In this document: positions 1,382-4,526 of the stretch, in pieces
How the letters are laid out: the number at the start of each line of letters is the position of its first letter
Numbering within the stretch: the stretch's first letter is position 1
Virus record (IMG/VR): IMGVR_UViG_2778261182_000006
DNA: 4,533 nt
Reading direction: 5' to 3' (one strand)
Source of the DNA: a virus
Taxonomy: Duplodnaviria; Heunggongvirae; Uroviricota; Caudoviricetes
The notes under the pieces: generated by a model
Databases searched by the model: none
Told to the model about the DNA's origin: nothing
The model's input: the letters and a program-made list of their open reading frames with translations, nothing else
Made by a program: the position numbers and the translations under genes

Positions 1382-1807
1382 TTAGTGCATCACCACGGCA
1401 TTTCCCGCCGGACCACCACGATTCATCTGGTTGAAACCAGCGATCGCCACTGCGACAAAATCATCAGCGTCTCTCACCAGTCGTTCCCGCGTCGCCACCA
1501 GCTCCCGAAAATAGGCTGAACTGTGACTGCGCATTCGGGCCACCAGCAGAGGTGGCATTGCTTTTTCGATCGCTGGTAACAGTGCCTGAATTTTTTTAAC
1601 CGCATCAGGAGTGTCTTTCTCTACCCAGCGGAAAATTTTCTGAGTATTGCGAGCCAGGGCTTCCGGATAGCTGTCGTCATACAGTTCCGGGAATGTCATA
1701 CCCAGCTCAAAATAAGCCCGGGTTATTTCAGCTGCCGGAACTTTTTCACCGTCCGGATGCGCCCAGGCACTCATCGCCATGCGGATGTGTTCATGCTTGA
1801 TTTTCAT
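1382..1807 (-). CDS. ydaT: YdaT-like protein (CII-analogue regulator of Rac-type prophages; historically annotated as toxin YdaT)
   Basis: 141-aa ORF from the track beginning MKIKHEHIRMAMSAWAHPDGEKVP, which matches my recollection of E. coli YdaT in length (about 140 aa) and N-terminus. It lies immediately downstream of the cro-like gene, overlapping it by 17 nt (1791-1807). Confidence 0.75.
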   Translation of the reverse strand: MKIKHEHIRMAMSAWAHPDGEKVPAAEITRAYFELGMTFPELYDDSYPEALARNTQKIFRWVEKDTPDAVKKIQALLPAIEKAMPPLLVARMRSHSSAYFRELVATRERLVRDADDFVAVAIAGFNQMNRGGPAGNAVVMH

Positions 1808-2063
1808 GAATCAACTCCGGTGCATTTGATGTGTTAACCTTACATCCAACAGGTAAACCGTCGGTTGGATTAGGATAAATATCAGGGCGAATTTCATGCG
1901 GGGTAACTTCCCACTTCATTAGCTGGCATAACGGAATTACCTGCTTTGGGGGAACGCCAAAGCTAAACCATTGCCAAACAGTCTGTTGAGCGACCCCCAT
2001 ATAACGACCTATTTCAGCTTGAGTGTATTTCTGCCTAATTTTTTCGCGAGTGCTATCTAGCAT
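1791..2063 (-). CDS. ydaS: Cro-like HTH regulator, YdaS family
   Basis: 90-aa ORF with an HTH (YTQAEIGRYMGVAQQTVWQW) and a YdaS-type C-terminal segment (PPKQVIPLCQLMKWEVTPHEIRPD). AGGAGG (revcomp of 2069-2074) lies 5 nt upstream of the ATG. It is divergent from the repressor-like gene at 2173. Confidence 0.8.
   Translation of the reverse strand: MLDSTREKIRQKYTQAEIGRYMGVAQQTVWQWFSFGVPPKQVIPLCQLMKWEVTPHEIRPDIYPNPTDGLPVGCKVNTSNAPELIHENQA
1797..1814. promoter_or_regulatory. Perfect inverted repeat TTGATT-N6-AATCAA centred on the ydaT start codon; candidate binding site for the CII-like YdaT or another HTH regulator
   Basis: Seen directly: TTGATT (1797-1802), spacer ttcatg, AATCAA (1809-1814). 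Its position at the cro-like/cII-like junction mirrors where lambda CII acts at pRE. Function is inferred. Confidence 0.35.
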
Positions 2064-2172
2064 TTTGCCCTCCTCTAAAAAACTATAAGCAAAGCCTACA
2101 ATAAAAAATTGTACACGATCAACAGTTTTTTATTGTGATGCTTTTAACAGTATTTACCTGTAAAATTGAATA
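2064..2172. promoter_or_regulatory. Divergent promoter/operator region (OR-like) between the cro-like and repressor-like genes
   Basis: 109-bp AT-rich intergenic region between divergent start codons. Contains the inverted repeat TACAAT-aaaaa-ATTGTA (2097-2113) and AACAGTTTTTTATTGT (2121-2136), a 15/16 match to a half-site of the palindrome at 3136-3174. A -10-like TAAAAT (2161-2166) ends 7 nt before the ATG at 2173, suggesting a leaderless repressor mRNA. Minus-strand -10 candidates are TATAGT (revcomp of 2082-2087) and TACAAT (revcomp of 2108-2113); their -35 elements are poor. Confidence 0.6.
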
Positions 2173-2574
2173 ATGATGAACGCCCTAGAAGTATCTATGT
2201 ACAGAATCAGCAAGCTTCTTCAGGAAACTGGATGGAGCCAGGCTGAGCTTGCCCGTAGAATTGGTGTGACACAACAAACTGTTCAACAATGGGCCAGCGG
2301 TAAGGCCACCCCTAAAGCCTCAAGTTTGGATAAACTGGTTGAGGTTACAGGGCATCCATTGCATTGGTTTTTATTGCCTCCTGAAGAAGGGGAGCAAATT
2401 TTCACCCCTGACACGATGAAAATTGGTCCTCGCCAACGCGAACTGCTCCAGGCTTTTAGTGCGTTTCCTGAGGAAGACCAAGAAAAAATGCTTCAAGAAA
2501 TCAAAGACAAGAAAAAATCAATGGAAGAAACCATTGCCCGGTGGTTGGCGGCGCAAAAAAGCCGCCGGGCGTAA
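2173..2574 (+). CDS. paaR2: XRE-family HTH transcriptional regulator, CI/DicA-like; regulator of the three-component TA operon and likely prophage immunity repressor
   Basis: 133-aa ORF with an HTH (SQAELARRIGVTQQTVQQWASG) and a C-terminal region typical of the dimerisation part of DicA-type repressors. No Shine-Dalgarno upstream. First gene of an operon with the antitoxin and ParE genes. Confidence 0.8.
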   Translation: MMNALEVSMYRISKLLQETGWSQAELARRIGVTQQTVQQWASGKATPKASSLDKLVEVTGHPLHWFLLPPEEGEQIFTPDTMKIGPRQRELLQAFSAFPEEDQEKMLQEIKDKKKSMEETIARWLAAQKSRRA

Positions 2575-2604: not shown

Positions 2605-2796
2605 ATGAGTACAGCCCTTTCTCCGATAGTTTCAGAATTCGAAACTACCGAACAAGAAAACAGTTACAACGAATGGCTGCGCGCTAAAGTGGCGTCAAGC
2701 CTTGCAGACCCTCGCCCCGCAATTCCACATGACGAGGTAATGGCTGAAATGGAAAATCTTATTGCTCAAATTGCTGTAACTAACAGGAGCGAGTAA
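2605..2796 (+). CDS. paaA2: Small antitoxin of a ParE-family toxin (PaaA2-like)
   Basis: 63-aa acidic ORF (MSTALSPIVSEFETTEQENSYNEWLRAKVASSLADPRPAIPHDEVMAEMENLIAQ...) with GAGGAG about 7 nt upstream of the ATG. Its stop overlaps the toxin start (TAATG at 2794-2798). Size and position match the PaaA2 antitoxin as I recall it. Confidence 0.8.
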   Translation: MSTALSPIVSEFETTEQENSYNEWLRAKVASSLADPRPAIPHDEVMAEMENLIAQIAVTNRSE

Positions 2797-3083
2797 TGTT
2801 ACCCATTTTATGGCTACCATCTGCTCGCGATGATTTGCGTCAGATCGTAGCCTATATTGCTAAGGAAAATATTCCTGCAGCACGCAGACTAAAAATACGT
2901 ATTGAAACGTCTGTTTTAGCCCTCTCTGAGCACCCATATCTATATCCGCCAAGTGATCGAGTATCCGGTTTGCGGGAAATTGTGGTTCACCCTAATTATA
3001 TCGTTTTGTACCGAGTAGCAACTTCAAGCATTGAAATTGCAAATATTGTGCATGCCCGCCGACAATTTCCCTTCTCTATCTGA
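2796..3083 (+). CDS. parE2: Type II toxin, RelE/ParE superfamily (ParE-like)
   Basis: 95-aa ORF (MLPILWLPSARDDLRQIVAYIAKENIPAARRLKIRIE...HPYLYPPSDRVSGLREIVVHPNYIVLYRV...) of typical ParE size and pattern. AGGAG (2785-2789) precedes it, with translational coupling to the antitoxin; a terminator follows. Confidence 0.85.
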   Translation: MLPILWLPSARDDLRQIVAYIAKENIPAARRLKIRIETSVLALSEHPYLYPPSDRVSGLREIVVHPNYIVLYRVATSSIEIANIVHARRQFPFSI

Positions 3084-3099: not shown

Positions 3100-3125
3100 A
3101 CTCCCTCATTCGAGGGAGTTTTTTT
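3100..3125 (+). terminator. Rho-independent terminator ending the regulator-antitoxin-toxin operon
   Basis: Seen directly: stem ACTCCCTC (3100-3107), loop ATTC (3108-3111), stem GAGGGAGT (3112-3119), overlapping a run of 7 T (3119-3125), 17 nt after the parE stop. Confidence 0.75.
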
Positions 3126-3135
3126 GCTCAAAGCC

Positions 3136-3179
3136 ACAATTAAAAACTGTTGACACAAAACAGTTTTTAATTGTAGATT
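3136..3179 (+). promoter_or_regulatory. pL/dicBp-like early promoter embedded in a 39-bp perfect palindromic operator
   Basis: Seen directly: ACAATTAAAAACTGTT (3136-3151) and its exact reverse complement AACAGTTTTTAATTGT (3159-3174), separated by GACACAA. Consensus -35 TTGACA at 3150-3155; -10 candidate TAGATT at 3174-3179 (18-bp spacer). The half-site recurs at 2121-2136 in the OR-like region. Confidence 0.55.
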
Positions 3180-3362
3180 GTTTTCACCGCCCCACCCCGT
3201 CCCACAGAACGCAGGGCAATACTTCGAGTTACCAGGCAGTGGTCAGGGGTTAAGTAGCCAGCCCGAGGCGTAAGAACATGACGGCAGGGTTCAACTTTAA
3301 TAACTATGCAGCAGGTTTTTGTTCCGCTACCCCGGCGTTAAGGGGAAACAGAGGATTTCTCA

Positions 3363-3719
3363 GTGGGCGAAGTCAAACATCAGAATGGAAGGCATCCCGG
3401 GATCGGCAAAGAAGCAGCAATGGCGCTTTATATTGACATCAGCGCCATTGCCGGACAGGTAAGAGTTATTAGAGCGGTAACTAAGCAGTATGCGCCTTTA
3501 CTTCAGAAAGTCTCTGGTGAGTGCACCGAAGATATTGTCAACGATTTCGTCATCGAACTGCGAGGACTCATCTTCAGTTACAAGGTGACCACAATTTTTG
3601 CAGATGGCTCCCGCGAAACTGTCAGAGCCCTGCGGCTTAAAGGATGTGTCAAAGACTTCGCCACCACATTCTGGGCAAGAAAACTTGATTGTATTCATAA
3701 CCAATTTCCTCTCGAGTAA
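3363..3719 (+). CDS. Alternative hypothetical protein (118 aa, GTG start), mutually exclusive with the antisense zinc-ribbon ORF
   Basis: Plus-strand ORF in the same direction as the early operon; GAGGA (3351-3355) lies 7 nt upstream of the GTG. It uses only AGA/AGG arginine codons in its unique 5' part and has no recognisable motif. Its openness over 3498-3698 may be an antisense in-register artefact of GNC-rich coding on the other strand. Confidence 0.3.
   Translation: MGEVKHQNGRHPGIGKEAAMALYIDISAIAGQVRVIRAVTKQYAPLLQKVSGECTEDIVNDFVIELRGLIFSYKVTTIFADGSRETVRALRLKGCVKDFATTFWARKLDCIHNQFPLE
3498..3698 (-). CDS. Small 4-Cys zinc-ribbon protein (about 66 aa), unknown function
   Basis: Minus-strand ORF (track 3498-3704, TTG start; more likely ATG at 3696-3698) with C-P-E-C ... 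C-K-N-C spaced about 21 residues apart, a classic zinc-ribbon signature, plus an acidic C-terminus. GAGAGG (revcomp of 3708-3713) lies about 9 nt upstream of the ATG. It conflicts with the plus-strand ORF 3363-3719; at most one is real. Confidence 0.45.
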   Translation of the reverse strand: MNTIKFSCPECGGEVFDTSFKPQGSDSFAGAICKNCGHLVTEDESSQFDDEIVDNIFGALTRDFLK

Positions 3720-4464: not shown

Positions 4465-4526
4465 TCATGTTGATTAGCACCTTTGGCGGCATCAGTTTTC
4501 ATTGCTGGCTGATGTCCGCCCTTTTT
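4465..4526 (+). ncRNA. dicF: DicF-like small RNA with its intrinsic terminator (5' end is processing-defined and approximate)
   Basis: The segment ...CCTTTGGCGGCATCAGTTTTCATTGCTGGCTGATGTCCGCCCTTTTTAAAGTGA resembles my recollection of E. coli DicF (...GTTTGGCGGTATCAGTTTTACTCCGTGACTGCTCTGCCGCCCTTTTT). Shared blocks are TTTGGCGG-ATCAGTTTT and CCGCCCTTTTT. It lies at the end of an early operon under an operator-controlled promoter, as DicF does in the dicB operon. Confidence 0.5.
4485..4526 (+). terminator. Rho-independent terminator (3' hairpin of the DicF-like RNA)
   Basis: Seen directly: stem GGCGGCATCAG (4485-4495) pairs with CTGATGtCCGCC (4509-4520, one bulged T), 13-nt loop, then a run of 5 T (4522-4526). 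Confidence 0.6.

Follow-up and report, generated by a model that had tools for sequence, protein, structure and literature searches.

On its ORF listing and Pfam scans, the 4,533-nt stretch of DNA analyzed here (the window) is the immunity region of a lambdoid prophage (Table 1). A gene for a PaaR-type repressor, the analogue of lambda cI, is followed on the same strand by the antitoxin gene paaA and the toxin gene parE; the gap between the repressor gene and paaA is 30 nt, and paaA and parE overlap. A scan of the window found no terminator between the repressor gene and position 3100. With a PaaA2-family antitoxin and a ParE toxin directly 3′ of the regulator, the locus has the composition of a PaaR-PaaA-ParE three-component module. 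Divergent ydaS and ydaT genes, a replication gene beyond them, and a copy of pL/OL downstream are all present as well.

The control region between ydaS and the repressor gene contains predicted operators that recur at pL. When we searched for ACARTN5AYTGT with up to one mismatch, we found 5 sites in the window compared to 0.52 expected, and none of 200 shuffles reached 5. The centers of the three sites in the control region lie at -68, -44, and -19 relative to A2173, 24 to 25 bp apart, and the half-site bases ACA and TGT of the OR3-like site are conserved across the alleles described below. OL/pL, a 77% copy of 2098 to 2136 that forms a palindrome with 16-bp arms right after the operon terminator, has two operators, not three. 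The position of the OR2-like site is analogous to that of lambda OR2, and by this analogy it may have an activating role; autorepression at high repressor levels via the OR3-like site may be expected on the same grounds.

Table 1. Genes and predicted regulatory elements of the window (SD, Shine-Dalgarno; dG, free energy of anti-SD pairing in kcal/mol)
Feature	Position	Strand	Basis and remarks
O-like replication protein gene	411-1358	minus	ORF and Pfam; SD dG -6.1
ydaT (CII analogue)	1382-1807	minus	PF06254; SD dG -6.1
ydaS (Cro analogue)	1791-2063	minus	PF15943, E = 8e-10; SD GAGGAGGG, dG -12.5
YdaT operator TTGATTTTCATGAATCAA, predicted	1797-1814		Exact TTGATTN6AATCAA match, 0.01 expected
Control region, 109 bp	2064-2172		Between ydaS and the repressor gene
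pR-like ydaS-ydaT promoter, putative	2093-2122	minus	TTGATC 2122-2117, 18 bp, TAGGCT 2098-2093; placed by register with pL
OR1-like palindrome ACAATAAAAAATTGT, predicted operator	2098-2112		Exact ACARTN5AYTGT match; in the spacer of the ydaS promoter
OR2-like site ACAGTTTTTTATTGT, predicted operator	2122-2136		Centered at -44 relative to A2173; immediately 5′ of the weak -35, abuts both -35 regions
Putative weak -35, ATGCTT	2138-2143	plus	17-bp spacer to the -10; 2/6 to TTGACA; placed by position only
OR3-like site ACAGTATTTACCTGT, predicted operator	2147-2161		1 mismatch; fills the pRM spacer; T2161 shared with the -10
-10 hexamer TAAAAT, predicted pRM-like repressor promoter	2161-2166	plus	5/6 to TATAAT; ends 7 nt before A2173
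Discriminator tgaata, 6 nt	2167-2172	plus	Separates the -10 from the start codon; holds in-frame stop TGA 2167-2169
PaaR-type (cI-analogue) repressor gene, 133 aa	2173-2574	plus	HTH_3, E = 4.5e-13
paaA antitoxin gene	2605-2796	plus	PF21217 PaaA2, E = 3e-22; SD GAGGAG 2592-2597, dG -8.6
parE toxin gene	2796-3083	plus	PF05016, E = 4e-16; SD AGGAG 2785-2789, dG -6.6
Intrinsic terminator of the repressor-paaA-parE operon	3100-3126	plus	8-bp stem with 5 GC pairs, then TTTTTTT
OL/pL	3136-3179	plus	Operators 3136-3150 and 3160-3174; promoter TTGACA-18-TAGATT 3150-3179

The closest DNA match of the window is an E. coli chromosome (98.4%). Among 5426 complete E. coli genomes, 510 contain the repressor-specific part, including many O157:H7 strains. 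In O157:H7 strain EDL933 (3,563,000 to 3,579,000), the lambdoid prophage adjacent to ssrA ends after an HNH endonuclease gene beside nin-region genes, at an IS30 fragment, and seems to be without an early or immunity region; other O157:H7 strains carry a window-type allele there. Downstream of pL, a segment of about 180 nt (3180 to 3360) has no convincing ORF and could correspond to an untranslated leader or to RNA of an antitermination type. The primer R-CP933P-Sal, designed for the immunity region of prophage CP-933P, matches positions 3336 to 3360 with a few mismatches; in CP-933P, no function could be assigned to the region downstream of PL933P (PMC8630535). On the opposite strand, also downstream of pL, positions 3498 to 3704 encode a zinc-ribbon protein of 68 aa that contains two CxxC pairs, and the corresponding position of the CP-933P locus holds a gene annotated as "ECs_2282 family putative zinc-binding protein." At 4474 to 4521, on the plus strand, there is a DicF-like small RNA (Rfam RF00039, 38.5 bits where the gathering score is 48, E = 5.5e-6, full model length), which would suit a pL operon of the Qin type (ydfA/B/C-dicF-dicB).

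Sequence context of the repressor start codon

An earlier, sequence-only reading of this DNA had proposed that the repressor mRNA is leaderless, as for lambda cI transcribed from pRM. It located the end of the hexamer TAAAAT exactly 7 nt ahead of the start-codon A, and reading the sequence directly (TAAAAT at 2161 to 2166, tgaata at 2167 to 2172, ATG at 2173 to 2175, a second ATG at 2176 to 2178) confirmed this placement. Because of the in-frame TGA at 2167 to 2169, a start of the repressor ORF upstream of 2173 is impossible; the earliest start available is ATG 2173, which supplies the AUG that E. coli needs for leaderless translation. In the minimum free energy fold of the predicted mRNA, the first 13 nt (AUGAUG...) are unpaired, and an Rfam scan at the repressor start returned no match.

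We looked for SD pairing in the 20 nt preceding each of the three candidate start codons and obtained best anti-SD dG values of +0.4 (ATG2173), +0.4 (ATG2176), and -0.5 kcal/mol (ATG2197). The values for the other genes of the window range from -6 to -12.5 kcal/mol, including -7.7 for orf3791. Irrespective of where its transcription starts, then, the repressor gene is the sole gene in the window without a ribosome-binding site. The sequence-only reading was correct that no SD motif precedes the repressor ATG, and also in its statement that the downstream antitoxin and toxin genes do have SD motifs: GAGGAG of paaA lies 7 nt before the ATG at 2605, and AGGAG of parE lies 6 nt before the ATG at 2796.

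In the AT-rich intergenic region (28% GC, 72% A+T), a hexamer resembling a -10 element can arise by chance. Over 200,000 shuffles of this region, a hexamer with at least 5 of 6 matches, including A2 and T6, occurred at the exact spacing with a frequency of 1.7% and within ±1 nt with a frequency of 5.1%. The position of the hexamer in the window, taken alone, is therefore weak evidence and only suggestive (p about 0.02 to 0.05). A generic sigma-70 promoter scan called no promoter at 2138 to 2166, a miss that results from the poor -35. We rejected the missing call as a sign that no promoter is there, because pRM-type promoters have a poor -35 and the active PRM933P promoter of CP-933P has an equally weak layout; ATGCTT in the window occupies the slot of TTGCTT in PRM of CP-933P (TTGCTT-17-GATAAT). 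An extended -10 element was also considered and rejected, since the TG at -14/-13 is one base off and is part of an OR3 half-site.

CP-933P paaR2 and other leaderless repressor genes

[quoted passage not shown] The transcription start of PRM933P, mapped by 5′ RACE, is the predicted translation start, the N-terminus of PaaR2 is MQKKE, and the intact mass agrees; in reporter assays, PRM933P was activated 4-fold at low PaaR2 and repressed at high PaaR2 (PMC8630535). The paaR2 locus and the window have the same gene order (O, ydaT, ydaS, repressor, paaA, parE, terminator, pL), and their C-terminal repressor domains, ydaT genes, and YdaT operators are homologous. They also share the -10-N6-ATG arrangement, with TTGCTT-17-GATAAT-taccac-ATG in CP-933P and ATGCTT-17-TAAAAT-tgaata-ATG in the window. 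Both repressor genes are without an SD motif and have a weak -35 in the equivalent slot.

Other parts of the two loci differ. Residues 37 to 133 of the window repressor align with PaaR2 at 42% identity (98 aligned positions, E = 4e-20), with the closest similarity at the C-terminus, and the N-terminal DNA-binding helices gave no alignment with PaaR2; the window repressor thus looks like a PaaR2 scaffold with a different specificity domain. The YdaS proteins are unrelated, the intergenic region measures 109 bp in the window and 97 bp in CP-933P, and the ACARTN5AYTGT palindromes of the window (three at OR, two at OL) contrast with GTTTAGTAA-type repeats in CP-933P. Given that the DNA-binding domain, YdaS, and the operators are all unlike, we infer that the window carries a heteroimmune allele of the CP-933P-type module. 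This allele is probably the second O157:H7 paralogue of Hallez et al. 2010, which is reportedly the original paaR-paaA-parE paper; the name "paaR1" for it is a guess. We found no published transcription start for the window allele in the literature.

When lambda cI is transcribed from pRM, the mRNA begins at the AUG and the -10 lies six bases upstream (TAGATT-TAACGT-ATG). Lambda and the window have in common a tripartite OR with a spacing of about 24 bp, a divergent pR-cro arrangement, a second promoter of the pRE type (predicted in the window), accessory genes cotranscribed downstream of the repressor (rexAB in lambda, paaA-parE in the window), and an OL/pL copy. They have no sequence similarity, and the CII analogue of the window is YdaT. 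Unlike the lambda repressor, the window repressor is without an S24 peptidase (RecA-cleavable) domain (Pfam; PMC8630535, discussion).

Two further prophages provide documented cases. For racR of the Rac prophage in E. coli K-12, primer extension showed that the strongest promoter, PracR3, gives a leaderless transcript (PMC9638921). Like the window repressor gene, racR is a cI analogue divergent from ydaS-ydaT; unlike it, racR has three promoters, two of them leadered, encodes a different family member, and is without a PaaA-ParE module. In the telomere phage PY54, RACE detected a single leaderless cI mRNA (PMC4488713). PY54 differs from the window in being a linear plasmid prophage with unrelated operator logic and in having a leaderless cro as well.

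Promoter-to-start-codon geometry across repressor alleles

We compared the region upstream of the repressor start codon among homologues with 45 to 98% protein identity to the window repressor, fetching the DNA via contigs that encode them. The sources were Salmonella, Serratia, Klebsiella michiganensis, K. spallanzanii, Pluralibacter, Morganella, Pectobacterium, Arsenophonus, a second E. coli allele, and several metagenomic contigs. A contig search combined with protein alignment yielded only 4 true relatives among 80 loci; the remainder were generic HTH proteins and were ignored. Alleles were anchored on the first in-frame ATG, without gaps. As a control set, we used 212 distinct ATG-first ORFs of at least 80 aa from about 20 enterobacterial loci.

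A -10 hexamer with at least 5 of 6 matches ends exactly 7 nt before the first ATG (d = 7), without any indel, in 15 alleles: the window, its O157:H7 copy, Salmonella, Serratia, K. michiganensis, Pluralibacter, Morganella, two E. coli B-type alleles, three metagenomic alleles, K. spallanzanii, Pectobacterium, and CP-933P paaR2. These constitute 14 distinct repressor alleles plus paaR2, which is the mapped reference and not an independent test; since the alleles share ancestry, the counts are not fully independent. All 15 start with ATG, and the hexamers are TAAAAT, TAGAAT, TATTAT, and GATAAT. The 6 nt between hexamer and ATG differ in almost every allele (tgaata, cgagaa, ttacgc, ttacca, ttattt, ttacgg, gaatgc, tcacgt, tcggat, gaatac, tttcac, ttaggt, ttagga, taccac). 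For the 12 window-type alleles, the information content per position was 1.86 bits in the hexamer, 0.44 bits in the gap, and 2.0 bits in the ATG. Anti-SD dG values among the homologues ranged from 0.9 to -3.3 kcal/mol.

The geometry did not occur elsewhere in the control set. A 5/6 hexamer at d = 7 was present in 14 of the 212 ORFs, each of which is the repressor gene, and in none of the other 198. In K. spallanzanii and Pectobacterium (both TATTAT) and in CP-933P (GATAAT), the operators are unrelated and the geometry is retained, which indicates that the hexamer is a promoter element, not an operator remnant. Three exceptions were found: in Arsenophonus, TATAAT sits at d = 8; in one metagenomic allele, d is 9 and an AGG lies 5 nt before the ATG; and in Citrobacter braakii (locus L005, 2141 to 2893) the repressor is fused in frame behind an extra N-terminal HTH within a 250-aa ORF, where the geometry is absent. 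The alignments thus suggest that selection keeps a -10 element 6 to 8 nt upstream of the start codon. A leaderless gene, unlike a leadered one, needs a fixed distance from -10 to ATG, with free sequence between them; the pattern therefore supports a leaderless reading. We regard these comparative data as decisive in raising the -10/ATG geometry of the window well above what chance would be expected to produce.

Protein conservation points to the same start. In an alignment of 24 homologues, residues 2 to 8 (M-x-A-L/I-E-V/I-S) are conserved and Met9, encoded by ATG2197, is Thr or Ala in several alleles, which implies that translation begins at the N-terminal Met pair and not at ATG2197. In alleles with two ATG codons (ATGATG, ATGaaaATG, ATGaagcgaATG), the first is always the one at d = 7 from the -10. 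Gene callers often picked the second ATG in relatives. The annotation is inconsistent in five of the loci that we inspected, starting either at the first ATG or at a second one 6 to 9 nt downstream, and the result is 132-, 133-, and 135-aa versions of the same repressor.

Transcript model and alternative explanations

We estimate a probability of about 85% that the maintenance transcript of the window repressor gene starts on or next to A2173 and is leaderless. The proposal of a leaderless, pRM-like repressor mRNA thereby gains support from the ATG as the first possible start, the lack of an SD motif, the conserved -10/ATG spacing, the three operators, and the paaR2 precedent. In the model that we favor, a weak pRM-like sigma-70 promoter would transcribe the repressor gene together with paaA and parE up to the terminator. 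The -10 hexamer would direct transcription to begin on A2173, the A of the ATG, so the maintenance mRNA would begin with AUG and would be translated, free of SD pairing, by the 5′-terminal-AUG (70S-type) route known for lambda cI (cited in PMC8630535, refs 28 to 31). The paaA and parE cistrons would use ordinary SD-dependent initiation, and it is a reasonable inference that the leaderless repressor cistron is translated less efficiently than these SD-led cistrons.

The regulatory part of the model follows lambda and the CP-933P reporter data. Repressor bound to OR1 and OR2 would silence the divergent ydaS-ydaT promoter, and from OR2 it would probably assist RNA polymerase at its own promoter, where the -35 is poor. 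At higher repressor levels, binding to OR3, a site that takes up the spacer and reaches the -10, would close that promoter.

The window also has signs of a second route to the repressor gene. The YdaT operator motif is known from PMC9986795, and in CP-933P the promoter PRE933P and the YdaT footprint were mapped at the ydaS/ydaT junction (PMC8630535, PMC9986795); PRE933P is active with YdaT, and its basal activity is undetectable (PMC8630535). The predicted YdaT operator of the window spans the start codon of ydaT and the stop codon of ydaS, and the 5′ end of ydaT is matched by the CP-933P ydaT primers. This exact operator match implies a pRE-like promoter region reading toward the repressor gene, and when YdaT is present the first transcript likely coexists with another whose leader measures about 350 nt. 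On such a long transcript, AUG2173 would still be without an SD motif.

This second route could be taken further, to the point that the sole or main source of the repressor is a leadered transcript originating far upstream, for example at a YdaT-activated pRE-like promoter near 1797 to 1830 and running antisense through ydaS. AUG2173 would then be an internal start without an SD motif, served by the A/U-rich sequence upstream of it, and TAAAAT would be inactive as a promoter. The exact YdaT operator, the activity of PRE933P with YdaT, and the poor -35 of the proposed pRM all fit such an arrangement. We nevertheless consider it quite unlikely, as it leaves unexplained why the alleles conserve the -10 and hold it exactly 6 nt from the ATG amid drifting neighbors. 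In CP-933P, moreover, basal pRE activity is undetectable and 5′ RACE places the start on the ATG, so a pRE transcript most likely coexists with a leaderless one and does not replace it. A smaller departure from the leaderless model would be a transcription start 1 to 3 nt off A2173, or use of the second ATG (2176), giving a leader of 1 to 3 nt and an mRNA that is not strictly leaderless. Start-site choice commonly varies by ±1 to 2 nt, positions 2172 and 2173 are purines, many alleles carry a pair of ATGs, and Arsenophonus and one metagenomic allele have d = 8 to 9. The first ATG nevertheless sits at d = 7 in every two-ATG allele, and the CP-933P transcript was mapped to begin on this A, with the corresponding Met as the first residue of the protein, which makes this variant very unlikely; the class of mechanism would be unchanged in any case, as no SD is present.

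It is extremely improbable that TAAAAT is a chance AT-rich hexamer or a part of an operator and that the real start is ATG2197, preceded by the weak purine run AGAAG. The base composition of the intergenic region, the 1.7 to 5% chance frequency, and the sharing of T2161 with the OR3-like site are compatible with this view. We rejected ATG2197 as the start on protein conservation (variable Met9, conserved residues 2 to 8), and its SD dG is only -0.5 kcal/mol; the hexamer, for its part, is retained where operators are unrelated, in a geometry seen in 0 of 198 control ORFs. None of these alternatives explains the conserved distance from hexamer to ATG.

The leaderless mechanism is already proven for the paralogue paaR2 and documented for other prophage repressors, and the case of the window is, in this sense, right but ordinary. 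Our results extend the published paaR2 mechanism to a heteroimmune allele, together with relatives from at least eight genera. With them, annotators can assign the start codon and promoter for a repressor that roughly one in ten complete E. coli genomes carries, many O157:H7 strains included, and they yield a signature for such repressor genes: a 5/6 -10 hexamer, 6 nt, and an ATG without an SD motif.

A more speculative idea, which we think rather unlikely to hold, is that leaderless initiation is itself under selection in this PaaR-type repressor family. It is suggested by the strict retention of -10-N6-ATG while operators, DNA-binding domains, and Cro partners were swapped. Such selection could hold the repressor low relative to its cotranscribed, SD-driven cargo. 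It could also sustain repressor synthesis when stress or toxins compromise canonical 30S initiation, linking prophage maintenance to the translational state of the host. If the idea is true, the pRE-type long transcript, which has no SD motif, would serve repressor synthesis poorly, in contrast to lambda.

Similar arrangements appear in two other repressor genes. That of phage Gifsy-2 has TAAAAT-gtgaat-ATG, with d = 7 provided that translation really begins at the ATG located 6 nt downstream of the annotated GTG, and dicA of PPompW has TAGAAT at d = 9, without an SD motif. Leaderless repressor genes may be common among distant relatives such as these.
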